Assembly: GCA_963719205.1 (NCBI GenBank)
Contig: CAVRAW010000005.1
Coordinates: 280,958-344,957, forward strand
Length of the DNA: 64,000 nt
DNA from: Pirellulales bacterium
Lineage (GTDB): Bacteria; Planctomycetota; Planctomycetia; Pirellulales; JADZDJ01
Direction of reading: 5' to 3'
Shown one piece after another: positions 28,808 to 64,000 of the stretch. Made by a program: the position numbers and the translations under genes. Numbering within the stretch: position 1 is the first letter of the stretch; each line of letters starts with the position of its first letter. The notes under the pieces were generated by a model. That model was not told the origin of the DNA, did no database searches, and worked only from the letters and a program-made list of their open reading frames with translations.

Positions 28808-31552
<2,745 letters not shown>

Positions 31553-31577
31553 CCTTTGGTCAGTTCATGGAGGATTC

Positions 31578-32238: not shown

Positions 32239-32266
32239 TAGGACGATTATCTAAAAAAGGGAATTT

Positions 32267-33876: not shown

Positions 33877-33893
33877 ATGACCTAAACTTGTCC

Positions 33894-36066: not shown

Positions 36067-36261
36067 TTAACGCTTGCGCTCGTCCAAGCCAAGAGTGGAG
36101 ATGATCGTTTCCGCGCCAGGCGTCATGCGGCGAAGCTTATCGGCGATGTTCGCCTTTTCCGAAACGGTGGCTTTCTTCAGCTTCCGCTGAAAGACGACCA
36201 GCTTCTTGCGCCGCCGGCGGCGCCGCTTGATTTCCTGCTTCCGATCGCTGATGCCACCCAC
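36067..36261 (-). CDS. small highly basic hypothetical protein (64 aa)
   Basis: GTG at 36261 gives MGGISDRKQEIKRRRRRRKKLVVFQRKLKKATVSEKANIADKLRRMTPGAETIISTLGLDERKR. Lys/Arg-rich, like ribosome- or nucleic-acid-associated small proteins. Confidence 0.5.
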   Translation of the reverse strand: MGGISDRKQEIKRRRRRRKKLVVFQRKLKKATVSEKANIADKLRRMTPGAETIISTLGLDERKR

Positions 36262-36333
36262 GTGTAGGCTCCTGGGGTCAAAGTGATCTGCTTTTGTAAC
36301 ACGACCGCCATGAAACGTCAACGCATAACGAGG

Positions 36334-36424: not shown

Positions 36425-36479
36425 GCCCCGAACATTTGACACTTTCCGCTGCTCAAAGCTACAGTTGCGCTATCTTGCC

Positions 36480-36516
36480 GGACGGGTGGCCGAGCGGTTT
36501 AAGGCACCGGTCTTGA
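36480..36516 (+). tRNA. truncated tRNA-Ser(UGA) 5' half (acceptor stem to anticodon), copy 1; not a functional tRNA
   Basis: GGACGGGTGGCCGAGCGGTTTAAGGCACCGGTCTTGA matches the class II tRNA-Ser 5' half (acceptor GGACGGG, D-arm GCC-GAGCGGTTTAA-GGC, anticodon stem CCGGT, loop CTTGA..). The sequence after the anticodon is unrelated: no ACCGG return strand, no T-arm, no CCCGTCC. Confidence 0.75.
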
Positions 36517-36649
36517 TGGCCGAAGCGGCCTGCCCACTGCCGTTCGGAGTCGGATGCGCGATCCGCTTCGGTGGTCGTTGGACTGCGCTAAGGCCCAAGC
36601 GAGCTACAACGCGTCAAATCGCTCGACCAACGATTTATTGGTCCTGGAA

Positions 36650-39010
36650 ATGGAAAATTCCTCTACTTCTACTACGCCACGACAGTCGGGATTTCGCGTG
36701 GTTGCCGCAGGCGCGTTGCTTGCTTTGGCAACCATCGTGGTCTATTTCCCGTCCATGCACGGCGGATTTCTGTTCGACGATGATCAGTTGCTGACGAACA
36801 ACCCACTGATCAAGGCCCCGAACGGCCTCTTTCGTTGTTGGTATACAACCCATCAGTTGGACTATCTGCCCCTTACCATTTCGACGCTGTGGCTGGAATG
36901 GCGACTATGGGGGATGGATCCCACCGGCTATCGTGTTACCAATTTGCTGTTGCATATCGCGGCATGCTTTCTGATTTGGACAGTGTTGCGACGACTATCG
37001 ATTCCCGGCGGATTCCTCGCAGCACTTCTATTTGCAGTTCACCCGGTCAATGTCGAAAGCGTTGCTTGGATTGAGCAACGCAAGAGCACGCTTTCGCTGG
37101 TGCTCTTCTTGCTGTCCATTCTATGGTACCCGATCGACGAGCCGGATCGCGAAACCAGGAAACATGCGTCGGCGTTGGGCGTCGGGCGATGGTACTGGCT
37201 TAGCCTGATGGCGTTCACCCTGGCGATGTTCAGCAAGGGCTCCGCTGCTATTTTGCCGTTCGTATTGCTTTTGATCGTGTGGTGGCGGCGCGACAGGATC
37301 ACGAAACCCGATGTGCTGCGCAGTGCCCCGTTTTTTTTGGTGGCCGCGGTCTTCACGCCGATCATCATTTGGTTTGTTGCGCACGGCGCGACGACGACGA
37401 TTCGCGAACTGACGTTTGGCCAGCGTGCGGCCTGCAGTGGAACGGTCGTGTGGTTCTACCTGTGCAAGGCATTGATTCCAATCCGCCTGTTGTTTGTCTA
37501 TCCGCAATGGCAAATTGACGCTGACAATCTGCTGTGGTGTTTGCCGTTGTTGGCGTCGTTCGTCATCACGGCGGAGTTGATCGGGCGGCAAAATCACAGG
37601 TGGATTCGGCCGATCTTGTTTGCTTGGGCGTCGTACTGTATCGGGCTCAGGCCGGTGCTGGGGTTCACCGATCCAGGCTATATGAGCGTAGCGGCGGTGG
37701 CCGACCATTACCAATACATTTCTTTAATCAGCATCACCGCACTGGCGGGCGCCGCTTGGTACAGGTGGCACCAACATGCTCGGAATATGATCCTTACGAT
37801 GACCGCCGCCACGACGGCAGTGGGCATACTTATGTTTTTGACGTGGCAACAAAGCCAGCTATATGCGGATCCGATTGTGCTGTATGAAGCCACCTTGGAG
37901 CACAATCCCGATTGTTATTTCATCCATAACAATTTGGGCGCAGAGCTCGCAAAGTCCGGCCGCTCGCAAAACGCAATCGGACATTTCCAAAAGGCGATTC
38001 GGTTAAAGCCGGATTACGCCCTGGCACACTTCAATTTGGGGGAAACGCTGCTCGCGTCAGGTCGAGCAGAAGGTGCGATCGAACATTATCGACAGGCGGT
38101 CCGCTTCCAGCCCGATTTTACCTTGGCGTATCATAATTTGGGCAATGCGTTGCGCGATACCGGCCACATCCAAGAGGCAATCGAGTCTTATGAGCGTGCG
38201 ATAGCGCTTGCACCGGCGTTCGCGACCGCTCACTTCAATCTTGGAATTGCCTTGATGCAGGAGCATCAAATCGACAAAGCGATCGAGCAATTCCGACTAG
38301 GCTTGCATTTTGATCCCGACAATGCTGCAGCGCACCACCAGCTTGGCAATGCTCTGCGTGCCGCACACCAACCGCAAGAGGCGGTTGATGAGTACCTGGC
38401 GGCACTGCGATTGAAGCCGGATGATGCCGAAGCGCAAGCAAGTCTGGAAATGCTGTTGTCCGGCCGAAGCCCTGCTGAAGAACCGCTGCATAACGTAGGC
38501 CACTTGACACCGGAGGATCGAAACGCCGTTGCCGCACAATTCAATCTGGGAATTGCCCAGCTTCACGCCGGACATCCAGAAAAGGCTCTGGAGTTCTTTG
38601 AGCGCGCTTTGTCCACGAAGTCCGATATTCCCGAGGTGCAATCGGCGATGGGCGCCGCGCTGGTCATAATGGGCCGATCCCAGCCGGCGCTGGAGCACTT
38701 GCAAATCGCATTGCGACTACGGCCCGATGACGCCGATGCTCAAAATAACCTGGCGTCCGCATTAGGCGCTCTGGGTCGCACATCGGAAGCGGTGGAACAT
38801 TGTCGAGAAGCGGTCCGCCTCCGACCAGCTTTTATCGAACCCTGGAACAATCTGGTAATTTTCTACGATCAATTACGCCAGCCTGAAAAAGCTGTCGCTG
38901 CTGCTGAGAAAGTGTTGGACCTGGCACGCTCTCAGGGAAAAACTGCTTTGGCTGAGCAAATGGAGGACTGGCTGGCTGCGCACCGCGGCGCCATCGAAAT
39001 AGCTCGTTAA
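36650..39010 (+). CDS. TMTC/PMT-like GT-C membrane glycosyltransferase with C-terminal TPR array (intact)
   Basis: ATG at 36650 (MENSSTST). Multi-TM N-terminal half with a first-loop FLFDDDQLL motif, WLEWRLWGMDPTGYR, AVHPVNVESVAWIEQRKS and ADHYQYISLIS. About 11 TPR units follow (AIGHFQKAIRLKPDYALAHFNLG etc). Confidence 0.85.
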   Translation: MENSSTSTTPRQSGFRVVAAGALLALATIVVYFPSMHGGFLFDDDQLLTNNPLIKAPNGLFRCWYTTHQLDYLPLTISTLWLEWRLWGMDPTGYRVTNLLLHIAACFLIWTVLRRLSIPGGFLAALLFAVHPVNVESVAWIEQRKSTLSLVLFLLSILWYPIDEPDRETRKHASALGVGRWYWLSLMAFTLAMFSKGSAAILPFVLLLIVWWRRDRITKPDVLRSAPFFLVAAVFTPIIIWFVAHGATTTIRELTFGQRAACSGTVVWFYLCKALIPIRLLFVYPQWQIDADNLLWCLPLLASFVITAELIGRQNHRWIRPILFAWASYCIGLRPVLGFTDPGYMSVAAVADHYQYISLISITALAGAAWYRWHQHARNMILTMTAATTAVGILMFLTWQQSQLYADPIVLYEATLEHNPDCYFIHNNLGAELAKSGRSQNAIGHFQKAIRLKPDYALAHFNLGETLLASGRAEGAIEHYRQAVRFQPDFTLAYHNLGNALRDTGHIQEAIESYERAIALAPAFATAHFNLGIALMQEHQIDKAIEQFRLGLHFDPDNAAAHHQLGNALRAAHQPQEAVDEYLAALRLKPDDAEAQASLEMLLSGRSPAEEPLHNVGHLTPEDRNAVAAQFNLGIAQLHAGHPEKALEFFERALSTKSDIPEVQSAMGAALVIMGRSQPALEHLQIALRLRPDDADAQNNLASALGALGRTSEAVEHCREAVRLRPAFIEPWNNLVIFYDQLRQPEKAVAAAEKVLDLARSQGKTALAEQMEDWLAAHRGAIEIAR

Positions 39011-39094
39011 CGCTTGCCCGACAACTTGGCCAGTCTGGTTTGAACGATACCTGCCAAATGACTCCAAACATACGAAATGCTATAACCAATTGCC

Positions 39095-39133
39095 CGGACG
39101 GGTGGCCGAGCGGTTTAAGGCACCGGTCTTGAA
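39095..39133 (+). tRNA. truncated tRNA-Ser(UGA) 5' half, copy 2; not a functional tRNA
   Basis: Same 37 nt as copy 1 plus two further loop bases (CTTGAAA), then unrelated sequence. It shares a 39-nt identical block (CCGGACGGG...GGTCTTGA) with copy 1. Confidence 0.75.
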
Positions 39134-39870
39134 ATCGATTTTGCACGATCGGTAGTGCGATCAAGAAAACGCTAATTCACTCGGCAAATCTTGGACAATT
39201 GTCGCTTCGATCGCAAGTGATGGATTGGGCAAAAACGTGGCAATAAATGGCACTTGCGGGTGTCAGTGACACCCGGTCATCGCGGGTGATCCGTCTGTTT
39301 GAATTTGCGGCGCACGGTGAGGGAGCAATCGTGTCATCAAGCAAATCCCCCTAAGTCAGTAGAGTGCAATACTGGCAGAAGCCCGGGAAATGATCCAGAT
39401 AAAAGCCACCTACACCGACGGATTACAGCGAGCTACGGCGTTTCGGCACGTTGGCTCCGTGATTTCCAGCGTCCTTCACCGGCACAAGATGGCGTGTCAG
39501 CTTCGGCCCGGGGATCACGTTTTCACGGAGAGCCCTGAGACACCTAGCATCGGGAAAATTCGCGTCGTCAAGAAAATCGAGAATGTCTTTGACTACTAGG
39601 CTGGCCGCTGGACGATTACCGTCGACCACCCGTCAGGTGAGAATATGCCAGCGGAAAAAGGCCCTGACTCGGATGATATTCACTTTCACTTTGTGTCTCA
39701 CGATCCCGAGGTAAAGCGAAAGCGTGCAAGAATTCCGTCTGTTTGGCTTTCGATTGCCAGCCACAAGCTGTGCCACGAAGCCACCATGCTGCAGACACGA
39801 TTCGGCTCGGACGACAAAATGTCTCTCCCGCGAGCGCGTGTATCATATCGAAGCGAAGCGCTGCAGCTAG

Positions 39871-41985
39871 CTATTCGGGTAACAAGCCCAGTTGAAGCCA
39901 TCCGCGGTCGACGTGCGCATGGGCGACACGAAACCGCTCTCTTCGATCGGATGCAGTCGGCAACGAGAATCGCGACCATACGAGCTCCTCAGCGAGGACC
40001 TTTCCCAGCGTGCGCTGCACGACGGTTCGCAACGCTTGTTGTCGGCCGCTTAACGGCGACTCGTATCCCTCCTCGTATGATAGCGTCTTGACCTTTAGAG
40101 CGCCTTGTCGGATTAGTGCGAGACCGCCGTCTCGTTCCTGGACGTTGTATGTCGCATCGACCATCATCGGCGGGTATTTCACGTCGCCTGATTCGAACGA
40201 TTCGATATGGAATCTGGCGCGGATCTGACCATCGACCAGTTCGGCAGTGCAGGGACGTTTTGAAAACGCAATGTTAAAATTTTGACCGGTATACTTCGGC
40301 GCGGCGACTCGCCAAGCGCTTCGTCGATCACTTGGATCAACTCATTCGCCGTCATTCGACGGCCGCTGAACGCAGTCGTTACAAGACTTTCCAGGGCGGA
40401 TGCGGCGCAGCAGACGAAGACATCCGAATGGCCGTCAAAATCCTGCGTCGGATCGTGATCTGGAATCGAATTGAAACCTACCAGAATCGCTTCCCAAGTC
40501 AGCGCGCCACCCGAGGTCTTTACACGGATCTCGGGAGTTGGCAGATTTGCATAGATGATCGGATCGCGGAACCTTGCGAAATACCACCGATTGAAAGCGT
40601 CGGCGAGTTTTTGGCCTTCCGCGTCCAACCGCGAGGTGACTGAATGGCGAGCCGCGGCTGCACTTTCAGCTTCTGCCATCGGCCGGCGAGCATATGTCCG
40701 CCGAACGGCCTCTTTACGACGGCGGCGGAGTCCGCGAGCGGCGATGTCGGTGTAGACGATGTTCGTCATGGCGCTCGCCTCAGCGGGCCGGGGAACGAGC
40801 CCACGTGCGTCAAGCGTGAACGGCTTGTCACCGGCGAGCGAAGTAGTGGCGCGACTACTCACTCGGACGCCTTCACTGTAGGCGGTGGTCGAGGCGTTGA
40901 CAGTTCCATCGAGTCGCACGGTCAGCCTTCCGACCGCGCTGGACGGAATGGCCTCCAGGCGAGATTTGCCGTGCATGCGACCGGTGCCGAAGGTGCTGGC
41001 GCCCCCGTACACGCCCTGAATCGGATACTGTTCGTCGAGCGACTTCGCCAGATGCGACGCTAACCAATCGGTTCGCAACACGACGATGAGGTTGGGGTGT
41101 GAAAACTTGCGGTAGATGGAGGCAGTTAAGGGTGTCGCCTGACCGAGTCGTTCGCGCTGATTGACGGCGTCAATGATCCTGGTTGCATCCGTTCCGGAGT
41201 CGGACGCGGAAGCGCTCAGCAATTCGGCCAGGTCGTCCCACGCCGACGCGTATTGCGCCGGGGTTTCGTGCGCCCGACGCCCGCGCACTAATGGTATCAG
41301 GGACCGGACGGCCAGAGAGGCCTCGATCAATTCGGCCGCATCCCAGACATCGGCCGCATTGTGCCAGCGCGTTTCTAAAGCGTCGAGCTCTAAAGCATCG
41401 GGGGGGCTGGCGGTCGAAGCGCACGGGCTTCCGGCCAATGCAGGTACAATCTCCACGGATCGTCGGTGCGCCGCAACTGGGGAAATCGCCGTTCTAGGGC
41501 ATCCAGGCGCTCAGTGACCCGCGCTGCGCCTGCCTGACTTCATTGTCCGAGATCGGCGCGTAGGAACGTGCCTTTTGGTGGCACAATTCGGTCCACTGGC
41601 TTTCGGGTATGGGCGTCAGCTCCTGGGCCCGCGCTTCCAGGGCGGTTGCGAGTCGCTGGAACGCTTCCCCGCGAAATTCAGACATGCTCGCCGTGCGCAA
41701 TCGTTCAGCCGCTGAGGCCAAGGGCGCGGGCTCGGCGCGGTTTCCAGCACGTAGCTCTTGCGTTGCGTCGTCCAGATCAAGTTGACGCGTCAGATTGCCC
41801 CACACCGGTAACTGCCCCGTCGTTTGTCGCAGTTGGCGGATTGTAGCCCGTGCATCGCGTGCCGACTGGGTATCGATCTGAGCGCAGGCTGGCTGTTGTA
41901 GAAATCCAAGAGTTAGCAGCGCCATCACGAAAGCAACGGAGGGATCGCGACTCAACCTTCGAGCGATGGATTGCAGCATTTTCAC
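39871..41985 (-). CDS. large hypothetical secreted protein (~700 aa), frame broken about 3 times
   Basis: Signal peptide at 41985 (VAFVMALLTLGFLQQPACAQ). ORFs 41494..41985, 40179..41456 and 39871..40182 connect through short alternative-frame stretches (..LDALERRFPQLRRTDDPW.. and ..ELVDGQIRARFHIESFESGDVKYPPMMVDATYNV..). Shifts lie near 41500, 41415 and 40250. No family recognised. Confidence 0.5.
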
Positions 41986-42006
41986 AGCAGATTGCAGTTC
42001 AGTAGG

Positions 42007-43895
42007 CTACGGTAACGGGGAAGTACTCTTGCGCACGACACCCAATTCGACCTTCCAGCCATCATCAGTCAGCGACAGGAACATTCCGGCCTCCGGCATG
42101 GCATCTCGCAAACGTTCGTATTGGGGCACCGTCGAATATGGCAGTGCCTGAGATCGTTCCGTCGTGCCGTAGAAAAGCAATCGCCAGAGATTGGTCAAAA
42201 GGTCGTTTTCGTCGGCCGTCTCAGCATCGGTCGCGGCAGATCGGTAGGAGTCCGCCAACACTTGATCGAGGTGCATGAGCCCCCGCATGCAGTTTGCGAG
42301 TTTTCCTGTCGCTTGATCCATTTGAGCAATGCGGACCAGGCAGCTGAATCGGCGAGCCTGGATCCACTGACGTTGCTCGAGATCGTCGATGTCAAAAAAT
42401 CGACGTCAGGTCCAAACAACAGCTTTCCTTGGCCGATCGCTAGCGCCTCGCACAGTGACCACTGAAGTGCTTTCCCCTTCGACAAAAAGCGATTTTCCTT
42501 TGGGAACCGTCCATAGTTCATAGTTTCCCAAACTGCCATTACTTACAGTTTTATCTCTTGCGTAGAATCGTTTCAGCGCGTTTGCGACCGTCTCTGGTTC
42601 TCTAATGCCGGCAACAAAGAGCCAACGTTCACCAGTGGCCTGGCCTGCCGATGGGTGCTCACGATTCTCAATGGGGCGGACACGAACGACGTCAGGGGTC
42701 AATTGTGCGAACACCTCGCGTCGCAGATCGACTTTGACGCCTTCGGGATCCTCGTGAATCCCATTCAGCATGTCCTCAAACATTCCCTCGCCATCTGGGC
42801 CGGGCTGGTTCATATCGTCGAAGAGATTTCCAAAGCCTTTCATTGCCGTGGGAAAATCCCATCGCCAGAACCAAACGCTCGCTACGTCGTCGCGGACCCA
42901 GTCAGGAACGATGGGAAACGCGCCGGGTTGCAGTTCCAGCAATCTCATTGCGGAACGATAAGGTCGAGGGGCGCGGAACTCGGCCCGCAAATCCCACTCG
43001 CAAGGTTTCGGCGCCTCGAATTCCAAGTGACCCGCAATGGATTGCACCGCGTCGAAGCCTAAACGACGAAATCGCGTTGTTCTGGAGTCGGCGTCCTGAT
43101 TGCGCTTTGCGGCGACGAGCTCCCACAATTCAATAGGACGAATAAAGAAGTTGACGTGCTGCTTGCTTGTGGGATTGCGGTCGGCATCGGCTAGAAAGGT
43201 CTTTCGGAACGCTTCTTGGTCCGTGAGGGAGTGGCCGGATCTGACATTCAGCAGTGCCTCGGCCGCCGCCGGAGAATTGGCGACACCGTAGTATCGGCTG
43301 CCAATGAACAGCACTCGCTGCGATTGCGAATCCTGTGTCGTCGGGAGTGCGAACACAGCCACTGCGACGTCGCCGACTTGGTGGGTCGATTTCTGATATC
43401 CCTGCCCACGGAAGTAGCGTTCTGCCGCAAGCAAGCATGGCGGGGTTTGATCGAGCGCGGTGGTGGAGGTAAACAGCCACGCTATGCCAACCGAGCGATT
43501 TTCCAGCGGAAAGATCACGAATCCGCCAGGATCACGCACCTGGAGCAGATCGCTCCAGTTCATACCGATCGCCGGGGCGGATTCAGTGGACCGGCCAGGT
43601 TGAGCCGCCCCAGCTCGCCAGCCAAGAGCGAGAAGTCAGGACCACACAGTTTTGCCCCGAAGCTCGATTTCTCGAAGAGATGACAACTAGCGCCAACGTT
43701 GGAGCAGAACGCTGCCAAGCAAGCATTTCCGGGCATGTAATCGGCTAAACCACCAGGCGATTGAGCGTGGCCAACGTGCGCAGCTAACGAAAGTGCCAGC
43801 ACGATGCACACCGCGAAGTATCGCGGAACAGTTCCACGGGCTCTGATTCGTGTCGCAAATCGTTGAATCGCCGCGGTTCTTGACATGCCACACAT
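42007..43895 (-). CDS. large hypothetical secreted protein (~630 aa), frame broken 2-3 times
   Basis: Signal peptide (YFAVCIVLALSLAAHVGHAQS). ORFs 43560..43895, 42406..43563, 42195..42539 and 42007..42321 join as ..VVTVRGA|LAIGQGKLLFGPDVDFL.. (near 42445) and ..AAWSALLKW|MDQATGKLANCM.. (near 42322). The first junction (near 43590) could instead be an ATGA-coupled gene boundary. Confidence 0.5.
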
Positions 43896-43966
43896 TATCT
43901 GCGCTCATGGACGGGTCTGCAAGCTAGGATAAACAGCTAACATGGACTAAATAGGCATACTATTCC

Positions 43967-46900
43967 ATGCATGTCCTGGAGGCGATTCAAGTCTGCAAGG
44001 AATACGGCAATGGATCGATCAAGGTCCAAGCCTTACGCCACGTAGACCTGCGTGTGGAAGCCGGCGAGTTCTTAGCGATCATGGGTCCGTCCGGGTGTGG
44101 CAAGAGCAGCTTGCTGCACATCTTGGGTGCGGTCGACTTGCCGAGCTCTGGGCGGGTATTGCTCGATCGATGCGATTTGGGACTTCTGGACGATTTGGCA
44201 CGAAGCTTAATTCGTCGTCGCCGGATCGGCTTTGTGTTTCAGAAGATGAACCTGCTGCCGACGCTTTCGGCGCTGGAGAACGTTTCGCTGCCATTGCGGA
44301 TCGATGGTGTGGGGCGGATCGCCGCGCATGATCGATCGCATGCCGTCCTGCAACAAGTCGGCATGGCGCATCGTGCGACCCATTTTCCTCATGAGCTATC
44401 GGGTGGCGAGCAACAACGCATCGCGATCGCACGCGCCCTGGTAATCCGTCCGGCTGTCGTCTTGGCCGATGAACCAAGCGGTGCGCTCGACAGTAGCAAT
44501 GGCCAGCGGGTTTTAGATCTCTTATGCGAATGTTCGGCGCGCGGACAAACCGTTGTCATGGTGACCCACGATCCCAATTTGGCACGCCGGGCTGGCCGAG
44601 TGATTCAAATGTATGACGGGCGAATCGCCAACAGTGCCAGTACGCCGGATTGCGCCGGGCGTCTTCACCGTCGCACGCCAATAGGCCGCACAATGATGAA
44701 CCTCGCGCATCTGCTTGCTCGCCAGTGGCGACAGCGTCGCATGCGAACGCTGCTTTCGATTCTTAGTGTGTCGATTGCAACAGCCGTGGTATTGGGCACG
44801 TCTCTGGCGAACACTAGCGTCCGGCTCGGAAACCGCAAACTCCTGCAAGCGGTCGAACAGCATCCCACTTTGGAAATCATTTCGGTCGTCGGCGGGCGCT
44901 TTATGGCCGCGGACGTGCCGAGATTGAACGAAATCTCCGGAGTATCGGCCTCCATTCCCATCGTTACACGCAGCACATTGATCCGGGTGCAGGGGAAGCG
45001 GCTGCAAACTGTGGTGGTCGGTGTGGCGCCGGATCATAAGGAAGTCCGGGAGGAACTGTCCCTGGCCTCCAATCGATTCCTTCAACAGTCCCGCGACGTG
45101 CTGCTATCTGCCGACGTTGCCAAACGATTCAAAATCAACGCGGGGGACCGTCTCACGATGCTCACGCTTCGCGGCCCGCGAACGGCGACGATCGTCGGGT
45201 TGGTCGATTCGGCTGGGCTTGGGAGCCTGCGCCCGGGGCAAGCGTCGTGATGCCGATTGAGACCGTTCAAGATTGGTTCGGGCTCGAAGGGCAAGTGGAT
45301 CGGCTGCGAATTCCAATCGGTCCTCATGGGCAAATCGAGGCGGCGCGATCTGCCATTGTGCAGCGCCTACCCGAAGGCTTGGTCGTACAGTCGTCAGGGC
45401 GACAATTGGAATTAGCCGAAAATGTACTACGACCCATCGATCTGGCGTTGCGCTTTGCGGGCGGCGCTGTCGATGGCGATGGCCGCATTCATCATCTTGA
45501 ATACGTTGCGGATGAATTTTGCCGAGCGTCGGCACGACATGGGAGTGGTGCGTATGCTTGGGGCCACATCGCGACAGATTGCGGGATTGCACTTGCTGGA
45601 GGGACTTTGTCTGGGCCTGTGCGGATCACTATTGGGGATTCCGCTGGGGATTTGGCTGGGGCGAGGATTGGGGCAGGTGATGGGACTAGTTTTGGACACT
45701 GAGATCGTGACACCACAGATTGCTCCGTCCGCAATCGCCATCGCATTGGCGCTAGGACCCGTAGTGGCTTGCATCGCGGCGCTCGCGCCTGCCCTGCAAG
45801 CGCGCCACGTTTCCCCGATCGAGGCTGTGGGCGACTCAGAGTTGCGACAGGCGGAACGTTTTCCGCTGTGGGCCATCGGTATGAGCCTTGTGGCGTGGTG
45901 TGTCGCGACCGTGGTGCTGCTGCTGATTGCCCACGGGCTAATGCCGCCCGACACGGCCATTCCTGCAGGATTGTTAATGCTAGTGGCGTTCATCATGTTG
46001 ATTCCGGCAGTTCTTGGGCCGATTGTGCTGCGCTTCGGTGTGGTGTCTGGCGGGATGGATGAATGTTGAAGGGAAACTGGCAGCAGAACAACTGCTGCGA
46101 CGGCCTACTCGCACTGGTTTGACCGTCGGAGTGGTCGTCGTCGCGGTCAGCACGTGCTTGGGTTTGGGCAACGCAATTGTCAACAACGTGAACGACGTGC
46201 GGGGCTGGTTTCGTCGGACGATGCAGGGTGATGTTTTGGTCACCGACCCATCCTCGGCGGATCAAGCTGTCACGGTGCCTGCTCGGAGCCAAGTGCGAGA
46301 GATGATCGCTGGGCAGGAGGGGGTCGACTACCTCGTCGAGTTACACTTTTTTCCGGTCCGGATCAACGGGTCGCCCACGATGTGCGTCGCACGTGACTTT
46401 GCTCCACAGGCGGAGCTGCCATGGTCCCTACCCTCGGCCGTTGAGGCACATACGCGCGCCGCCTTATCCAGGGGCGATGCCGTAATCAGTAGCGTGATGG
46501 CCAAAAAGCTCGGACTGTCCATCGGTGACAAGTTCCAGATGGAAGCGCGCGGTCGAATCCTGTCAGGTCAGGTGGCTGCGGTCGTGAACGATTATTGGAT
46601 GGGGGGCACAGCAATCTTTCTGGAACGCGCTGCGGCCGCGGAATTGATCGACCTGGGACCGGCCAACATCTACATCGTACAGGCCAAGCATGACGCATCT
46701 GTGCAAGCTCTGCGCAACAGCCTGTCGGGCCTGGCGGATCGAGAAGGGCTAGTCGTCCATTCCTTTACGGAGCTGCGCGTCGAGGTCGATCAATTGATCA
46801 ATGGCGTGGTGGGCGCACTGTGGAGCGTGCTGGCCGTCGGCTTTGTGATTGGGGGAGTGGCTGTGGGCAATACGCTGACCATGAGCGTGTTTGAACAGAC

Positions 46901-47207
46901 GCGTGAGATCGGTTTGCTGCGAGTTGTGGGAATGACACGACGGCAGGTACGGAAGATGGTGGCCTGTGAAGCACTATTGCTGGGAATTGTAGGTGTTTTG
47001 ATGGGTATCTTGGCCGGCGCGACGACGGCGCTGATTATCCATCTATGCAATGAGCCGTTGCTCGACCGACCGATACCGTTTGTGTTCCATACCTGGCTGC
47101 TGGCAGTTAGCGCGGGTGGTGGTTTGTTGGTCGCGATGCTGGCTGCCTGGCCGCCGGGCTACCGGGCGGCGCAATTGGATTTGCTTTCTGCAATCGCTTA
47201 CGAGTGA
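43967..47207 (+). CDS. ABC transporter: MacB/LolD-type ATPase in frame with two FtsX-family permease domains, frame broken about 3 times
   Basis: Walker A GPSGCGKSS, LSGGEQQRIAIARAL and VVLADEPSGALD. Then MNLAHLLARQWRQRRMRTLLSILSV (FtsX TM1), a periplasmic domain, and LNTLRMNFAERRHDMGVVRMLGATSRQI (FtsX core 1). A second unit follows with LRRPTRTGLTVGVVV...MSVFEQTREIGLLRVVGMTRRQV. Shifts lie near 45245, 45455 and 46040. Confidence 0.8.
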
Positions 47208-47226
47208 AAAGTGACGTGGTGAAAAG

Positions 47227-48149
47227 GTGGCTTGCTTATCGTTCGTAAAGTTTGCAGTGGCCGATGGCGTTGCCACGATTACTGTCGACCGACCCGATGT
47301 GCTCAATAAATTGAACCCGGTTGTTGTCCATCAGCTGCAGCAAGCGTTCGACCAAGCGTCTGCTGATCCAGAGGTGCGGGGAATTGTGCTGGCGGGCGAG
47401 GGAAAGGCGTTCATGGTCGGCGTCGATGTCGAATTCTTCATTCGCTGCATCGAGTCGGACGATATCGCGCGGATTGTAAAGTTCACCGAAGCAGGTCACC
47501 AACTGCTCAACGCAATTGATCGGTCGGCCAAGCCGGTGGTGGCGGCGCCAACGGCGCGGCATTGGGGGCGGGCCTTGAATTGGCCTTGGCCTGCGACTGG
47601 ATTGTGGCTTCGACGAGCGCGAGTTTCGGCTTTCCGGAGACAAGCTTGGGAATCTATCCCGCCCTGGGTGGAACACAAAGATGCCCGCGCACGATCAGCG
47701 TCGGATTGGCGAAATGGTTGATCCTTACTGGAAAGACGCTCTCAGCGGCCGATGCGGCGAAAATCGGGTTAGTCGACCGCGTCGTCGACGCCACGCAATT
47801 GGACGAAGTGGGCCGCGGGCTTGCGCTGGGTCGGTTGGCAAGCCAGAGGCCGACGACCGTACCAAACGAACTAACTGCGATCGAGCGATTCTTCAACAGA
47901 AGCCGCGCTGTCGACCTGCATGCGGGGACGGCCGATTCAGAAGGCAGTCCTGTACTTGTCCGCGCAATGCGATCGGTCGGCGCCAAGTCCCCCGTAGCTC
48001 TCGTACTAGCCGAGTGGCTGATTGAAGAGGGAAGTCGGCGGTCACTTGAAGAGGGATTGCAGATGGAGATCGACCACCTTCGGGACGTTTTCTCCACGGC
48101 CGAGGCCTATATCGGGCTGATGTCCTGCTTGCGGAGGGGGGCGTGGTAG
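47227..48149 (+). CDS. enoyl-CoA hydratase/isomerase (crotonase) family protein, frame broken near 47549
   Basis: VATITVDRPDVLNKL, LAGEGKAFMVGVD, then after the shift NGAALGAGLELALACDW and FGFPETSLGIYPALGGTQR. Confidence 0.8.
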
Positions 48150-48512
48150 TCGTCGTCAGTTGGTTGGAAAAGTCCAAGTATTCAGCCCTTCTTATCCAAC
48201 CGTCGCCGCTTGACAAGCCCATCCCAGGGTCGATAATCCGGGGAGATATTAAGGACGGTAAGTCAGGTTGCATGCGAAGGAAAGGCATCTCGCAAGGCAT
48301 TCAGTTCGGATTGGCTGGCCCTCGCGACGCGTGCAGAGAGTACGGAAATCCGTGGCCTGTGCGGCCATGATATCTCGGCAACCATCCGTCGCATTTCGTT
48401 CGATGGCCTGCTCTCACGTTGCTTGGCCGATTCGGGCCAGTCGCCGTCGACACAGGCCGAGTACCGATGCACCGTAACCTGTTCGGACAGACGGTGCCTT
48501 TTTTGTGCCTAT

Positions 48513-49634
48513 ATGCAGTTTGGATTCTGTTACATTCCGGACTACCGCGCGAGCCAGCATGGCACGTACCAATCGTGGTACGAACGACTACTGCATGAAT
48601 GGAAGACAGCCGACGATTTGGGATATGACGCTTTATGGATCGCGGAACATCGCTTCCCTGGATATGGCTTCTGCTCGACACCCGTCGTGGCCCAGGCGAT
48701 TGCCGGCCGGACGGAACGGATTCGTATTGGTACCGCAGTGGTGCTGCTGCCACAACGGCATCCCGTACTGACGGCCGAGGATTGGGCGGCCGTGGATCTA
48801 CTCTCCGGCGGCCGCCTTAATTTCGGTATTGGACGCGGCATTTTTGCCTATGACTTCGCGACCGTTGGCGTGAGATCATCGGAATCGTGCGCGCTTCGAG
48901 GAGGCCTGGGAGATCATCCGCCGACTTTGGACCGAACAGCGGGTGACGTACCAGGGCAAATTCTGGTCGTTTATCGATCATTCGCTCGAGCCGCAGCCGC
49001 TACAAAAGCCAACGCCGCCCACATTCGTGGGTTGCATCGCGACGCCGGAATCGTATCGCTGGGCCGGCGCCAACGGCATGCACCTGATTGTGGCGCCATT
49101 TCTGCTCAAATCAACCGAACAGCAGCGGGAGCTGCTCGACATTTACCGCGACTCGCTCGCTGAGGCTGGCTACGAGCCGGCCAGCTTTCAGGTCATTGCC
49201 AACTACCATTTAGCGCTCGTGTCAAGTGAGGGCGAACTGCGGGACGCGGAACAATACCTTTTTCGGTACCTGGACTTTCTTGCGGACGCCGAGTCGAAGC
49301 AGAAATCGTATTTGGACAAGCAACAATACGCAGCCTACGCACCGGCCGAAGCTCGGTCGCGGGATGTAGAAGATGTGCGTGCGCATTGCGCGGTCGTCGG
49401 AACAGCGCAACAGTGCATCGATCGAATCGCCGAATTGGCAGAAGCGTGCGGGCTTTCCGGCTGGATGTTTCACATCAATTATGGCGGCGTACCGCACGAA
49501 CGTGTCATCGAACAGATGCATTTGTTCGCCGAGGATGTGATGCCGACTTTCGCGAGTCCACACGAATTGGCTGCCTCAACGGGTGGGGCGTTAGGCAGGA
49601 CCCGGTCGACGAGCGGTTCGGTTGCGACCATTGA
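48513..49634 (+). CDS. LLM-class (luciferase-like) flavin-dependent oxidoreductase, frame broken near 48873; 3' boundary ambiguous
   Basis: MQFGFCYIP.., LGYDALWIAEHRF and LLSGGRLNFGIGRG, then after removal of one base DHRNRARFEEAWEIIRRLWTEQRVTYQGKFW..GTAQQCIDRIAELAEACG..AEDVMPTF. As given, the frame reads on into the next domain without a stop. Confidence 0.8.
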
Positions 49635-49635
49635 A

Positions 49636-50751
49636 ATGGAGCCGCTTTCAAACGGCCGGCTTGCCTCGCCATGTGACGCTTGGAGCGCGACAGCGACCAA
49701 CGGCGACGCGCTTTCGCCCACACGCCTCCGGATTTCGACCGAACTGGCGAGCGGCGCACGAGATATGACCAGTCGGGCCGTGAGCTATTGGCGAAGTTGT
49801 GTATTGTTTGCCGCGAACAAACTGGAGATTTTCAGCACGGTTGGCCACCGAACGATGACCGCGGGCGACGTTGCCGGCGAACTGCAATTGGACGTTCGTG
49901 GCACTGAAAAGTTGTTGAATGCGTGCGCGAGTCTTGGCCTGATGCAGAAGGAAGGTTCGAGATATTCACTTTCCGAAGACAGCCGACTGTATCTAGACCG
50001 CTCGTCAAGCGTGTACTTGGGAGATTGGGTGGCGCACTGGGCCGACATGCTTGCAAAGGGCAATTGGCAGAGGCTCGACGAAGCGGTCCGCAGCGGGCAA
50101 CCAGTCGCCGCGGCACAGACCTTATTCGGATTCGACGATCGCCGCGATCCGATGCACAACTGGGTTGTCGGCATGCATGAAATGGGGGTCGCAGGACATG
50201 CCGACCTGCTCGCGTCCGCAGCGTCGATCGACAACGTGAGCAGCCTCTTGGACGTGGGAGGTGGGCCTGGAACTTACAGCATTTACTTGTGCCGTCGATT
50301 TCCTGCTCTTGAAGCCACCATCGTTGACGCACCCGATGTAGCAATCGTGGCGAAGAAGTTGATCGCCCAGGCGAATTTGAACGAACGGGTTCATATTGTA
50401 AATCTTGATTTTCGTACGCAAGGGCTTGGTCGAAAGTTTGACATCGTTCTACTCTCGAACGTTTTGCACATGTGTTGCAAAGCGGACGCCCTCTTGATGC
50501 TCCGTAACGCGGCAGGGCACCTCGCCCAGCGCGGTCGATTGGTGATTCAGGAGTGGATTTTGAACGACGACGCCACTGGGCCCGAGCTTGCCGCGCTTTT
50601 CGACTTGCATATGTTGCTCAATCCTAACGCCGATGTCTATCGGTTCTCGGAGTTGATCGAAATGATCACTCAGTGTGGCTTTCGATTGGTGGAGTCGATC
50701 CCGACCGGTGGTTTGTATGACTTGATGATTGCGCAAAGACAATGCGACTGA
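49636..50751 (+). CDS. class I SAM-dependent O-methyltransferase (COMT/dimerisation-domain type); separate gene or fused to the LLM domain
   Basis: Winged-helix/dimerisation part LFAANKLEIFSTVGHRTMTAGDVAGEL..LLNACASLGLM. SAM motif I LLDVGGGPGTYS, then DIVLLSNVLH. A candidate ATG at 49636 lies 1 nt after a TGA in the +1 frame. Confidence 0.75.
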   Translation: MEPLSNGRLASPCDAWSATATNGDALSPTRLRISTELASGARDMTSRAVSYWRSCVLFAANKLEIFSTVGHRTMTAGDVAGELQLDVRGTEKLLNACASLGLMQKEGSRYSLSEDSRLYLDRSSSVYLGDWVAHWADMLAKGNWQRLDEAVRSGQPVAAAQTLFGFDDRRDPMHNWVVGMHEMGVAGHADLLASAASIDNVSSLLDVGGGPGTYSIYLCRRFPALEATIVDAPDVAIVAKKLIAQANLNERVHIVNLDFRTQGLGRKFDIVLLSNVLHMCCKADALLMLRNAAGHLAQRGRLVIQEWILNDDATGPELAALFDLHMLLNPNADVYRFSELIEMITQCGFRLVESIPTGGLYDLMIAQRQCD

Positions 50752-50767
50752 TGAAGGGGCCATCCTG

Positions 50768-52006
50768 ATGACTGCGGAGACGCAATACGAATCGCCGCAA
50801 GCCGATGTCAGTGACCCAATCGTTGTCGTGGGAGCGGGCGCCGCTGGCATGGGGGCGGCAATTGCCGCGGCCCGATCGGGTTCGAAAGTGCTTTTGGTTG
50901 ACTCCGCTGAAGGCCCTGGCGGAACTGTCACCAGCGCGCTCATCCACACACTCGGAGGAATCTATGATGATCGCCAGCAATACCTCAACGATGGAGTCGT
51001 CTGCGAACTCGCGGAGCGGCTACGCCGGGCCAGTTCATCGACACGTCCCCGCAAAATTGGACAGACCTGGTGCCTGAACGTTTGCCCCGAAGTGTACCGG
51101 ACGGTCGTCGAGAGGTGGATTGCGGAGGAAACCTTGATTCAACCGTTGTTTGGCGCCCGCGTTACGCGAGTGATAACCGATTGTGGAATGGCCGAAGAGC
51201 TAGAGTACCGCGGACTTTGGGGGACGCAGCGCGTTTTGTTGAAAGCGATCATTGACGCAACGGGCACAGCCGAGATCGTTCGGATGATTAATCCAGATCT
51301 GGTCTACGACGACGACGATCGAGCGGCCGGTGGAATGATTTTCCGGCTGCGGGACGTGAATCCCGGGGCGCTGAAGTTCCCCAACGGCGTCATTTTGATG
51401 CAACGCATGCGCACCGCGGCTGAGAATGCAGCGCTGCCGGCGCTTTGTGCACATGCCTGGCTGGATCAGGGTGTTTTCGAGGACGAAGTATTTGTAAAGC
51501 TGTTTGTACCATTAACGAATGATTGGACCCAGTCGGGGCAATGGACTCTGATTACACGGGAAGCGCAAGACGCGCAGGCCTGCATCATCGAGTATTTGGG
51601 GCGGCTTCCAGAGTTTGCACACGCGCGACTGGTTCAGACCGGCGTTTTGGGAGTTCGCGATGGCGGCCGCATCAAGGGGGAATACTATCTGACGGAAGAT
51701 GACGTGCGGTGCGGTCGTGCCTTTCCCGATCCAGCCTGTCGATGCTGCTGGCCGATCGAATATTGGCATCCGAGACGCGGCCTTGAATTGGAGTATCTGC
51801 GGCCCGGTACACGCTACGAGATTCCCTTGCGTGCGCTCAAAGTGAAGGGATTGAGAAATGTCTGGGCGGCCGGCAAATGTCTTTCGGCGGATCACCGAGC
51901 TCAAGCCTCGGCACGCGTTGTCGGGCAGTGTTGGGCGATGGGCCAGGCCGTCGCGAGGGCAGTTGTCGGTATTGGAAGCGATCGGTATGGCGCCAAATTG
52001 TTGTAG
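50768..52006 (+). CDS. FAD-dependent oxidoreductase (FAD_oxidored/GIDA-like fold)
   Basis: ATG at 50768. Dinucleotide-binding IVVVGAGAAGMGAAIAAARSGSKVLLVDSAEGPGGT and C-terminal WAAGKCLSADHRAQASARV. Confidence 0.8.
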   Translation: MTAETQYESPQADVSDPIVVVGAGAAGMGAAIAAARSGSKVLLVDSAEGPGGTVTSALIHTLGGIYDDRQQYLNDGVVCELAERLRRASSSTRPRKIGQTWCLNVCPEVYRTVVERWIAEETLIQPLFGARVTRVITDCGMAEELEYRGLWGTQRVLLKAIIDATGTAEIVRMINPDLVYDDDDRAAGGMIFRLRDVNPGALKFPNGVILMQRMRTAAENAALPALCAHAWLDQGVFEDEVFVKLFVPLTNDWTQSGQWTLITREAQDAQACIIEYLGRLPEFAHARLVQTGVLGVRDGGRIKGEYYLTEDDVRCGRAFPDPACRCCWPIEYWHPRRGLELEYLRPGTRYEIPLRALKVKGLRNVWAAGKCLSADHRAQASARVVGQCWAMGQAVARAVVGIGSDRYGAKLL

Positions 52007-52015
52007 GTGTTTGTC

Positions 52016-53473
52016 ATGTTCAATCTGTTCGAAGTATTTCGTCAGATGGCGAAGCGGCGACCTCGGCAGATCGCGTTGGTCGATTGTGATTTGCAAGAAT
52101 GCATGTCGTACGGCGAGCTGCTCGAGGAGGTCGAGCGATTTGCGCAATGTTTGCAGCGTGGCAAACTCCGCGCAGGCCAGTGCATCGGCTTGCATGTGCC
52201 CAGTGGCCGCAATTACATTTTGGCGACCTACGCCGCCTGGAAGTGCGGCGTCTGTGTCGTGCCCATCCCGATGGAATTGAGCACGCTGGAAAAGCAACTC
52301 ATTTGCGCGAGTATTGCCCAACATGGAATGCTGACTTGTGCGACTTCCACAATATTCTGGCAATCTTGGCAGCGCGGAGACGCCATACGACTGGGACCAC
52401 TTGAAATGGTTTTGCTCAAACCGGCGATTCGGCCGCCGGCAGGCCTCCAGGACATCAACGCGGCGTTCATTCGCTTCAGTTCGGGAACGACCGGTGACGC
52501 TAAGGGCGTCGTCCTTTCGCACGAAACGATTCTTGAACGAATCCACGCGGCCAACGAGGGATTGCATATTGGGCCGCGGGACCGTGTGGCCTGGCTGCTA
52601 TCGATGTCGTACCATTTCGCGGCATCCATCGTGGCTTACTTGTCGTTTGGCGCAACTGTCATCCTTCCAAAGCGAGAGCTGAATCTTGGAGGCGCCTTCA
52701 TCGATGCCGCGAGCCGATACGAGGCCACGCTGATCTACGGATCGCCGTTGCAGTACAAGCTGATGGCCATGGACCGCGGGAATCGTAGACTGGACACCGC
52801 ACGGATTGCGATTTCCACAGCTTCGTCGTTGTCGCGCGACACGGCCGAGTCGTTTTACAAGCGATTTGGCATCGCCTTGTCGCAGGTGTATGGCCTCATT
52901 GAAGTGGGGCTGCCGTGTATGAATTTGCGCTTTCCTTATGAGCACTATGATTCCGTCGGGCAGATGCTGCCGGCCTTCGAACTGCGATTGATCGACAGCG
53001 GCCACGGCGGCCACTTGAAAGAGATTCAACTGCGGGGGCGCGGATTTCTCGATGCTTACTACGACCCCTGGCAAACACGCCGTCAAATCATGCCGGACGG
53101 CTGGTTTCACACGGGGGATCTGGGCGAGGTGAACGAAGACGGGTGCCTGTTCATCCGTGGGAGATCCAAAGAGGTGATCAACGTAGGGGGCATGAAGGTT
53201 TTTCCTCGAGAAGTTGAGGCCGTGCTGCAATTACACCCGGCAATCAAAGAGGTGGCCGTCTTCGGAGTCCGCCAGATGCGAAGCCGAGAGTCGCTGTGGG
53301 CGGATGTGGTCATTCACCCCGAGGTCAAGACTCCGCCGAAGGAGAGCGAACTACGGCAATTTTGTGCCAAGCAATTGGCTCACTACAAGGTGCCGGAGCG
53401 AATCGCACTTGTGCCGCAACTGGCACGTACGGCGAGTGGCAAAGTCCTGCGTCGTGCAGTGGAATCCGCGTAA
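52016..53473 (+). CDS. AMP-dependent synthetase/ligase (fatty acyl-AMP/CoA ligase-like)
   Basis: Adenylation cores FSSGTTGDAKGV, GWFHTGDLG, GRSKEVINVGGMKV and ARTASGKVLRR. Directly abuts the previous stop (TAG 52004-52006); the alternative start is GTG at 52007. Confidence 0.88.
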   Translation: MFNLFEVFRQMAKRRPRQIALVDCDLQECMSYGELLEEVERFAQCLQRGKLRAGQCIGLHVPSGRNYILATYAAWKCGVCVVPIPMELSTLEKQLICASIAQHGMLTCATSTIFWQSWQRGDAIRLGPLEMVLLKPAIRPPAGLQDINAAFIRFSSGTTGDAKGVVLSHETILERIHAANEGLHIGPRDRVAWLLSMSYHFAASIVAYLSFGATVILPKRELNLGGAFIDAASRYEATLIYGSPLQYKLMAMDRGNRRLDTARIAISTASSLSRDTAESFYKRFGIALSQVYGLIEVGLPCMNLRFPYEHYDSVGQMLPAFELRLIDSGHGGHLKEIQLRGRGFLDAYYDPWQTRRQIMPDGWFHTGDLGEVNEDGCLFIRGRSKEVINVGGMKVFPREVEAVLQLHPAIKEVAVFGVRQMRSRESLWADVVIHPEVKTPPKESELRQFCAKQLAHYKVPERIALVPQLARTASGKVLRRAVESA

Positions 53474-53513
53474 CGAGATATCTTTCAGACCCTGCCACGT
53501 CGTGCGGATCAAT

Positions 53514-54362
53514 ATGCAACTGGGCAATTGGCAACTTGATACAGTCAGCGGGGGGACCTTTTGGCTGGACGGCGGCGTGATGTTCGGGGTCGTGCCCAAG
53601 TCGCTCTGGCAAGACATCGCAGCGCCGGACCCAATGAACCGCATCAAGTGCGCGAATAACTGCGTGTTGGCACGCGATGGTCGCCACACCGTGCTCATTG
53701 ATACTGGCTACGGTGGCAAGTTCTCGCCACTCGAGCGCAGGTTCTATGTCATGGAATCGGGTGAACCACTCTTGGCAAGCCTGGCCGCGTTGGGCGTGGC
53801 GGCGGAGGAGATCGACACGGTCGTCCTTAGCCATCTTCATTTCGACCACGTTGGCGGAGCGACTCGGCTTGATACACAGGGGCGGCGCGTCCCTGTCTTC
53901 ACTCGGGCGCGTCATTTCGTGAGCCGTTGCGAATGGGAGGACGCCACAAGCGGGAGTTCCGAACTCGCGTCCGCATATCCGCTGGATGACATTCTTCCGT
54001 TACGCGAAGCAGGTTTGATCAGGGTTGTAGAGGATGGACAAGAACTGCTGCCTGGGCTCCGCGGCCGCGTGACGGGGGGGCACACGCGTGGGCACATGTC
54101 GGTGTTTTTCGAATCCGGTGGTCAAACGACTGCCTATCTTGGAGATATTTGCCCGACGACCGCACATCTCAGGCGAATGTGGCATCTCGCGTATGACACC
54201 CACCCGTTGGATACTCGGCGGCGTAAGCCGGCACTGCTGAGCCAGGCAGCAGATGAGGGCTGCTGGGTCATCTGGAACCACGACCCGCGCGTGGCGGTCA
54301 GCCGAGTTGCCCGACATCCAAAGCGCGAATTTGTGGCGATCGATCGACGCGAGGCACTATAA
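53514..54362 (+). CDS. MBL-fold metallo-hydrolase
   Basis: ATG at 53514. Metal-binding motif LSHLHFDHVGG, with downstream GGHTRGH and WNHD. Confidence 0.85.
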   Translation: MQLGNWQLDTVSGGTFWLDGGVMFGVVPKSLWQDIAAPDPMNRIKCANNCVLARDGRHTVLIDTGYGGKFSPLERRFYVMESGEPLLASLAALGVAAEEIDTVVLSHLHFDHVGGATRLDTQGRRVPVFTRARHFVSRCEWEDATSGSSELASAYPLDDILPLREAGLIRVVEDGQELLPGLRGRVTGGHTRGHMSVFFESGGQTTAYLGDICPTTAHLRRMWHLAYDTHPLDTRRRKPALLSQAADEGCWVIWNHDPRVAVSRVARHPKREFVAIDRREAL

Positions 54363-54537
54363 GGTGCATCACTAAACCAACTAATCAGCAGTGTCTAGGT
54401 AGTTTTTGCAGTCTGTCTATTTGATCTATGTTGACTGCCTAAGGATTAGTCTTAGAATCAGGGCCGTTAGCTTTGAAGGCTTTGGGTAAGGTGGGGCTAT
54501 CAGGTAGCGTCTCTCGTCGATCGGCTGGGGGAACCGC

Positions 54538-56012: not shown

Positions 56013-56134
56013 GAAAATCGGCCGAACGGCAGAAAGCATTCTGCCGCGACACCAAGCGATGGCTGAACAACAAAGAGTTCAGACGGCTTGGATGCGCGAA
56101 TGATGAATGTGAAAGTCACGACGGTTCACAAGTT

Positions 56135-63500: not shown

Positions 63501-64000
63501 GTCAGCGATTTTTTCAGTTGGCGGGCGACGCCCGACGGCTCGACGACTGTAGCGTGGTCGCGCTGGTCGACCTCGGCGGAGATTTCGGCTTCTCCGGGAA
63601 TGTGGCGACCCCCGAATCGGGCTTTCTGACGGGGCTGATGAAGGAACTTTACCTGGAACACTCGATCGTGCGTGGCTTCAAGCACGTCCGCTGCAAAGCG
63701 ATCGATGCGCCCCGCGGGGAAGAGCCCGACGTGCTGGCGGCCAATATCTGTCGCGAGCTCGCGGGTGGGACCAACGACTACGAGGTCGCATTCGTCGAGG
63801 GTCGGCGGTATGTGCAGGTGGCCCTGCCTGCGGCGGCAAAACTCGAGCCACACAGTGCAGTCCGGCCGGGAGGTACCTGGGTAGTGACCGGCGGCGCCCG
63901 GGGGATTACGGCCGAGTGTGCTTTTGAACTAGGCCGTCGATTCGGATTGAAGTTGCACCTGATCGGCAGGTCGCGGCTGGCCAGTATCGACCCGTCGTGG
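60581..64000 (+). CDS. type I PKS / PUFA-synthase-like subunit B: 3 tandem ACPs - C45/Ntn-hydrolase (IAT-like acyltransferase) domain - ketoreductase; partial at the right edge; frame broken twice
   Basis: Three copies of ELEQFLINFVVEQTGYPPEVVELDADLEADLGIDSIKKAQMFGELREYF (Ser in DSI). LRGSSYEMGYQQG...SGNCAQVG...FPGMAGSLVGVNGNGLAASL...FATNH is peptidase-C45/AAT-like. KR structural part HGNGAMAEALQRRLIAGGATVV and catalytic Rossmann GTWVVTGGARGITAECAF..LHLIGRS. Shifts lie near 63050 and 63385, and the ORF is open at 64000. Confidence 0.85.
60861..61915 (+). repeat. 408-bp tandem DNA repeat (~2.6 copies) encoding the ACP units plus Ala/Pro linkers
   Basis: Units begin at 60861, 61269 and 61677, an exact 408-nt period. 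Only a handful of substitutions separate the copies (e.g. gattaac/gatcaac, gatgatttt/gatgacttt, tacgcg/tccgcg). Confidence 0.9.

Follow-up and report, generated by a model that had tools for sequence, protein, structure and literature searches.

Mobile elements that target tRNA genes carry a fragment of the gene in their attachment site (attP); integration restores the gene and displaces a fragment of it (PMC4383910). Out of 3919 islands in Islander, 3760 have a 3' fragment and 159 a 5' fragment, 2083 (about half) have an attP centred on the anticodon, and 125 tandem arrays are recorded (PMC4383910). Here, we report two truncated 5' halves of a tRNA-Ser(UGA) gene in a 64-kb stretch (the window) of the genome of a Pirellulales bacterium (Planctomycetota; GenBank assembly GCA_963719205.1, contig CAVRAW010000005.1, positions 280,958 to 344,957 of the forward strand). 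We interpret the halves, with a probability of roughly 0.7, as 5' fragments displaced when elements inserted site-specifically into the anticodon loop of this tRNA gene at least twice in succession. The locus resembles classical 3'-fragment islands (P4-like and P22-like integrase elements) in its direct repeats of part of a tRNA, and would share with them a tyrosine-integrase crossover in the tRNA gene and regeneration of that gene; it differs in being their mirror image, with the 5' part duplicated.

The exact 39-mer CCGGACGGGTGGCCGAGCGGTTTAAGGCACCGGTCTTGA occurs twice on the plus strand of the window, at 36478-36516 (copy 1) and 39094-39132 (copy 2); with up to three mismatches no third match was found in the window, and 100 shuffles gave none. 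The original prediction, made from the bare sequence, had described this repeat and placed copy 1 correctly, whereas its copy 2 (39093-39131) has to be shifted by one base. Positions 3 to 39 of the 39-mer are nucleotides 1 to 37 of an intact 88-nt tRNA-Ser(UGA) gene in a related Pirellulales genome (locus L011, 2974-3061), which bears out the proposed identity as the 5' half of this tRNA. Aligned to that gene, both copies start at the tRNA 5' end plus two preceding bases (CC). Identity stops after CTTGA (A36) in copy 1 and after CTTGAAA (A38) in copy 2, exactly where divergence had first been noticed, and both break points fall inside the anticodon loop (C32-A38, A38 being its last base). Measured by what Islander looks for, the copies are end fragments (nucleotides 1-37 and 1-39 of the 88-nt gene) and not internal pieces, and the sublocation of the crossover is the anticodon loop in both.

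Neither copy is followed by a 3' half, as the original prediction had held. Local alignment of the sequence after each copy to the 3' half did not score above shuffles (p = 0.38 for copy 1 and p = 0.98 for copy 2), and the 3' half was found nowhere in the 64 kb, either with a pattern for the T-arm and 3' acceptor strand or by short-word BLAST with the complete gene. ARAGORN called zero tRNA genes in the window; Rfam gave nothing at gathering thresholds in the window and just noise at E<=10 in 36300-39700. The flanks of copy 1 and copy 2 share no similarity on either side. Because the sequence after the copies is unlike a 3' half and the flanks are unrelated, we regard both copies as clean truncations and not as eroded genes or the product of a segmental duplication. 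A degenerate 3' half after copy 1 had been considered on the strength of a MAFFT similarity of about 57%, and was rejected since the local alignment above, scored against dinucleotide shuffles, was not significant.

Searching one genome per species for the 37-nt tRNA part gave 15 loci. Thirteen are alphaproteobacterial with an intact tRNA-Ser(UGA), one (L012) is alphaproteobacterial with a match cut by the contig end, and one (L011) lies on the Pirellulales chromosome OY970289.1, hereafter relative 1, for which a 22-kb extension (L016) was obtained via protein P0063. Relative 1 has an intact tRNA-Ser(UGA) gene, and the promoter-like sequence upstream of copy 1 recurs in front of it with one spacer base changed. 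It is collinear with the window over 27076-36516 at 83-95% identity (87.6% over the last 1.9 kb), interrupted solely in a low-GC stretch at 31.5-33.3 kb, and the match ends exactly at the CTTGA of copy 1 (36516). Beyond the tRNA gene, relative 1 continues with Flp pilin, TMTC-like (P0063), tetratricopeptide repeat (TPR) and S1-P1 nuclease genes and others; this 13-kb downstream flank is absent from the window, apart from paralogue similarity of 64-71%. Comparison with relatives lacking the intervening DNA had been proposed as a check, and relative 1 is such an empty site in the sense used by Islander, with an intact gene and a flank conserved up to 36516.

A second relative (relative 2, L020) was found via a flanking 379-aa protein and is collinear with the window over 27311-36361. 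After the equivalent of 36361, between the DUF6800 gene and an intact tRNA-Ser(UGA) gene, it has about 3.1 kb of unrelated DNA (L020 6230-9345); the genes downstream of the tRNA are homologous to those of relative 1, and the extra DNA is thus on the 5' side. A DUF6800 gene adjoins the tRNA locus in L016 (8708-8902) and L020 (9454-9648) and serves as a synteny anchor in all three genomes. As synteny with two relatives ends at or just before copy 1, the repeats mark the start of a variable region, which is how they had first been understood (as the start of an accessory region). Inside the insertion of relative 2, an open reading frame (ORF) tail, FHALRHTFVTN...TRYTHL (FHALRHTFVTNSVLTGAGEHLLLQVCRLSSGSLLTRYTHLRADD...; 6296-6469, minus strand), ends about 70 nt before the tRNA. 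Its 61 residues align weakly with positions 129-169/172 of PF00589 (Phage_integrase; E = 0.1) and, each time weakly, with the catalytic C-termini of HP1 integrase, XerA and Tn1549 Int (E = 0.3-1.2), and all of these matches fall on the H-x-x-R...Y region. We read the tail as the C-terminal remnant of a tyrosine integrase. At its left junction this insertion lacks the original promoter and 5' half. The insertion also holds a 229-aa ORF with a weak helix-turn-helix (GerE-like) match, and gave no PHROG matches. Relatives of the remnant in IMG/VR (L021-L034) were generic integrase matches with no tRNA directly downstream and were uninformative, and a metagenome scan with the flanking 379-aa protein returned one distant 1.3-kb match and nothing more.

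Proviruses with a similar organization were found in IMG/VR, where a 29-nt pattern running from the D-arm to the anticodon of the half matched 81 loci, mostly intact genes. Nine of the 81 are truncated halves ending in CTTGAAA and then T, with the same break point as copy 2, and eight of these nine continue into a conserved arm, TTCGCTTGC or a close variant (L101 differs). Two contigs show the integrated form: 3300048813_000187 (L078 then L093) has a truncated 5' half, 19.7 kb of DNA, an integrase gene, about 70 nt and an intact tRNA-Ser(UGA), and 2654588102_000002 (L101 then L084) has the same succession with 10.8 kb. The integrases of both contigs (376-390 aa; PF00589 E about 1e-19 to 1e-21) read towards the tRNA. 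The attP-like form is represented by L055 and L075; in L055, a gene for a 395-aa integrase is followed after 84 nt by a truncated half, an arrangement that looks like an attP. From the two-copy contigs and L055 it follows that elements integrating in the anticodon loop of this tRNA and carrying its 5' half exist. The mechanism that had been proposed for the window, an attP carrying the 5' half with the intact gene re-formed at the far right, is a documented minority configuration among the islands of Islander (159/3919), and these proviruses show it for this same tRNA.

These proviruses share with the window the target tRNA (the 29-nt segment was what the search looked for) and the position at which copy 2 breaks off, and their layout of 5' fragment, island, integrase, about 70 nt and intact tRNA is echoed by the integrase remnant of relative 2. 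They differ from the window in the acceptor stems of their tRNAs (GGAAGGG and GGAGGGA) and in the conserved arm, with GTCC..TTTTCA about 50 nt on, which is not recognisable after the window copies; the remnant of relative 2 is not close to their integrases. In L055, L067, L074-L078 and L098 the arm or a variant of it comes after the truncated half; several of them also have the GTCC...TTTTCA motif about 50 nt farther along, and its reverse complement resembles the anticodon loop region. The conserved arm and this motif may be the integrase binding sites of one element family.

Under the integration reading, the elements would be of the minority type, with the 5' part of the tRNA in attP and an integrase gene just upstream of attP. 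Each integration would push the resident 5' half to the left, and an intact gene would be re-formed at the right from the 5' half of the element and the chromosomal 3' half. Copy 1, with its native promoter, would be the original chromosomal half, and copy 2 the half supplied by the first element, which would since have decayed to a single TMTC-like gene without an integrase. A second insertion, starting at 39135, would then have displaced copy 2. The intact tRNA, probably preceded by an integrase gene, would be expected to the right of 64000, where a third co-oriented 39-mer would continue AAACCGGAGTGGGCG...GGTTCGAATCCCTCCCCGTCCG. With the 5' part duplicated, the regenerated gene would have to use a promoter supplied by the element, and the original promoter would be left driving the displaced half and what follows. 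A promoter-like site stands upstream of copy 1 (Table 1) and is probably the ancestral tRNA-Ser promoter, now pointing into the TMTC-like gene; its activity as a promoter is suggested by its match to the consensus.

The chance that two random breaks in an 88-nt gene would both hit the loop is about 0.6%. Two breaks in a 7-nt loop, together with a copy 2 whose left edge is at the tRNA 5' end, favour junctions made by an integrase over random breakage, because an element must carry exactly that much of the tRNA to rebuild a functional gene. In part, the evidence supports assigning the configuration to a minority class of tRNA-gene islands that is already known, one marked by displacement of a 5' fragment, crossover in the anticodon loop and tandem arrangement. 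In common with the 5'-fragment islands of Islander it has an end fragment reaching from the tRNA 5' end to the anticodon loop, co-oriented copies and an empty site in a relative, and tandem arrangements are documented there; it differs from them in that the visible 27.5 kb show neither an integrase nor the intact tRNA end, the first unit is one cargo gene and the host is a planctomycete of the Pirellulales. Islander takes islands of 2-200 kb; segment 1 measures 2.6 kb from repeat to repeat, and segment 2 at least 24.9 kb as far as the window reaches.

The DNA between the copies (segment 1) consists of a leader, one TMTC-like gene and a spacer (Table 1), so that the repeats bracket a single gene, as first described. 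Its product (P0001) has a best homologue at 56% identity and is 43-50% identical to seven paralogues listed from relative 1, among others about 44% to P0063, the native neighbour of the tRNA there. With these low identities, P0001 is not simply the displaced neighbour. The TMTC-like family is huge, with thousands of matches in the homologue search and many paralogues per genome (at least seven matches from one 4.25-Mb chromosome). Segment 2 (from copy 2 to the right end of the window, which it overruns at 64000) starts with about 500 nt of non-coding DNA, followed by planctomycete hypothetical genes on the minus strand (40179-43895) and then by genes for MacB-type ABC transporters and tailoring enzymes and a polyketide synthase (PKS)- or polyunsaturated fatty acid (PUFA)-synthase-like cluster with two ketosynthase (KS) domains, an acyltransferase (AT) and three acyl carrier proteins (ACP) (KS/KS/AT/3xACP; Pfam). 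The homologues of its first gene (P0121) reach at most 48% identity, and none of the 37 matches comes from relative 1; the first genes of both segments thus lack a close orthologue in relative 1. No tRNA or tRNA fragment lies near the closest homologues of the two proteins (P0002 in L017 for P0001, and L018 for P0121).

Several observations weigh against successive integrations. No integrase or integrase fragment was found in 36517-64000, either by Pfam on long ORFs (39.6-63 kb) or by a six-frame profile and phmmer search of limited sensitivity, and the absence of a visible integrase noted in the original prediction is thereby upheld; in Islander terms, the visible part of the island does not contain an integrase. 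The six-frame queries were a profile of three IMG/VR integrases and the remnant of relative 2, of which the control in L020 was recovered and everything else was noise. The visible 25 kb of segment 2 lack phage or conjugation genes by Pfam, and its hypothetical ORFs gave no PHROG matches. The arms after both window copies are not recognisably homologous to the conserved arm of the IMG/VR elements. Copy 1 loses identity at A36, and two bases of a canonical 7-nt anticodon-loop overlap would consequently be mismatched. The difference in tetranucleotide composition is small, with a distance of 12.4 between the left and right sides and of 10.1-10.5 within sides. Finally, segment 1 is just 2.6 kb long and holds one gene, from the same paralogous TMTC-like family that natively follows the tRNA in both relatives (L016 10001-14299; L020 1674-5997), which hints at a local rearrangement instead of import.

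GC content and frameshift density had also been taken to change around the repeats, and this part of the original prediction fared less well. The GC content drops locally from about 0.60 to about 0.555, ORF size and density (by crude ORF tiling) are equal on both sides of the repeats, and the tetranucleotide shift is marginal. As the shift is small and the tiling equal, the argument from GC content and frameshifts carries little weight.

The likeliest alternative dispenses with an integrase: illegitimate or homologous recombination in a fast-evolving TMTC-like array could have broken the tRNA gene, for instance if the 5' half was copied along with a paralogue in a duplication or translocation, with a working tRNA-Ser(UGA) elsewhere. 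We consider this unlikely. It would account for the TMTC-like paralogues that both relatives have directly after the tRNA and the window has between its two halves, for the want of an integrase in the window and for the small shift in composition. It does not predict, as att sites do, that both breaks fall in the 7-nt loop and that copy 2 has its left edge right at the 5' end of the tRNA; moreover, the unrelated flanks of the copies speak against a segmental duplication, P0001 is just about 44% identical to P0063, and integrase-related DNA is present at the same tRNA in relative 2. Another TMTC-like gene lies in the window at 4550-6434.

We read segment 1 as a decayed first island or as an integrase-less cassette, and the second of these forms a variant of the integration model. 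A cis-mobilizable element (CIME) is an att-flanked, integrase-less element that lies beside an integrative and conjugative element (ICE) or an integrative and mobilizable element (IME) and can be mobilized in cis, as described in the literature on the ICESt elements of Streptococcus thermophilus. Segment 1 is likewise bounded by two co-oriented att-like repeats with no integrase between them, and differs in that no partner integrase or transfer genes were seen in the window and the unit is a single gene. A CIME-like segment 1, movable in trans by the integrase of a neighbouring island, would fit perfectly identical, co-oriented 39-nt repeats around one complete gene that has no integrase beside it, and tandem arrays at tRNA genes are documented (PMC4383910). 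We nevertheless judge it improbable, given that no second TMTC-like gene adjoining a half-tRNA was found, that the context of P0002 (L017) is free of tRNA sequence, that no cognate integrase was seen in the window and that the 83 nt between the gene and copy 2 leave little room for an arm carrying sites for an integrase and accessory proteins. The more specific proposal that a single-gene TMTC-like glycosyltransferase cassette was moved in trans by the island integrase, with the displaced half and the tRNA promoter co-opted as its promoter and 5' leader, is something of a long shot.

An assembly artefact, in which a long-read metagenome assembler would have concatenated strain versions of a hypervariable locus and thereby created the second half, is barely credible. 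The assembly does contain indel-type frame shifts (MacB, P0121 and KS), split genes occur in sister assemblies of the same project, and the locus differs among all three genomes compared; even so, 39 bp of repeat is much less than would mislead an assembler of long reads, the junctions of the two copies are clean and differ from each other, and the truncated-half structure also occurs in proviruses whose IMG identifiers are, judging from their form, of the genome and not the metagenome type. Least credible of all are halves that serve as functional RNA genes (split-tRNA 5' halves, a tRNA with a huge intron, or tRNA-half regulatory RNAs or mRNA leaders), for although copy 1 keeps a strong promoter-like site and both copies are undecayed over 39 nt, the gene at this locus is ordinary and contiguous in both close relatives, the 64 kb contain neither a 3' half nor a match to a group I or II intron model, the sequences after the two halves are unrelated to each other, and the predicted fold of the 181-nt leader is no more stable than shuffles (z = -0.65). 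A split, trans-spliced tRNA was ruled out on the absence of a 3' half from the 64 kb searched, the unrelated sequences after the halves and the contiguous gene in the relatives; trans-spliced tRNAs are not known where the archaeal splicing endonuclease is lacking. A group I intron in the anticodon loop was ruled out in the same way, with no Rfam intron family at gathering thresholds in the window or at E<=10 in 36300-39700, and no 3' exon in the window.

Table 1. Coordinates of the features at the tRNA-Ser(UGA) locus, in window positions
Feature	Position	Strand	Basis
DUF6800 gene, last conserved backbone gene before the tRNA locus	36067..36321	-	PF20607, E = 3e-14
Promoter-like site upstream of copy 1 (TTGACA, 18-nt spacer, TACAGT)	36436..36465	+	Consensus scan, 10/12 matches
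Copy 1, probable displaced chromosomal tRNA-Ser(UGA) 5' half (nt 1-37), attL-like junction	36480..36516	+	Alignment; end of synteny
Segment 1 (2577 nt: 134-nt leader, one TMTC-like gene, 83-nt spacer)	36517..39093	+	Translation, Pfam
TMTC-like gene (protein P0001), likely start at 36650	36554..39010	+	Pfam TPR families; PMT_2 at E = 6e-4 (weak, N-terminal)
Copy 2, second tRNA-Ser(UGA) 5' half (nt 1-39)	39096..39134	+	Alignment; flank upstream unlike that of copy 1
Segment 2 (at least 24.9 kb, runs off the window)	39135..64000	.	Pfam; 13-kb downstream flank of relative 1 not present here

The tRNA-Ser(UGA) locus is a hotspot of variable DNA in this Pirellulales lineage, since all three genomes compared differ there, and the repeats fix the edges of at least one insertion to the base. 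As the mechanism of integration is established, the result is an additional example and not a new principle. Its main value lies in marking precisely the boundary of a variable region, one to which the PKS cluster may belong. Should segment 2 really span the PKS/PUFA-synthase-like cluster, a planctomycete secondary-metabolite cluster would be island-borne and potentially mobile, which would be of use for genome mining. Islands with 5' fragments are easily overlooked, because software and annotators alike tend to look for a 3' fragment on the downstream side of the tRNA, and here the original locus appears as a truncated gene alone; a further consequence of the arrangement would be a tRNA promoter left pointing into cargo genes. 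Were the cassette explanation true after all, Pirellulales could shuffle their large family of TMTC-like paralogues at the tRNA-Ser locus.

Frame shifts split several genes of segment 2, including MacB (43967-45250 and 45422-46069) and the KS domains, which are spread over overlapping ORFs at 57089-60584. The P0121 family, about 700 aa in its homologues, is here divided into 41494-41985 and 40179-41456. Since ClpB, HSP70 and EF-G are also split in sister assemblies (L018, L020), long-read indel errors are a likelier cause than pseudogenes. Within the ORF at 60374-63154, three tandem 408-nt units (60858-61973; 99% and 86% identical over 300 nt) encode a run of three PP-binding (ACP) domains; together with the ORFs for KS, KS and AT (57089-60584), this triple ACP looks like a multi-ACP module of PUFA-synthase or PKS type.

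To the left of the tRNA locus, the stretch 31500-33600 has a low GC content (0.47-0.52) and is not syntenic with either relative; it contains an ORF (32267-33154) without a Pfam match, and its part at 33258-33561 is inverted relative to L016 5966-6266. The whole stretch is another variable spot, small in size, 3-5 kb to the left of the tRNA locus.

The GC skew of the plus strand stays between -0.15 and -0.25 through most of the first 31 kb irrespective of gene strand (with weaker dips at about 4-7 kb and 13-15 kb), and beyond about 35 kb it lies between zero and +0.14; a similar change occurs at the tRNA locus in both relatives. A replication origin at the junction is not favoured, as the window shows no cluster or enrichment of DnaA boxes, the change in skew starts before the tRNA and it is also present in the relatives. 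The change could stem from a switch related to replication or from some property of the genes there. Short pyrimidine-rich repeats of the CCTTCCGCCTTCC type occur at 7016-7042, 9310-9350 and 33825-33851, in intergenic or ORF-poor DNA.

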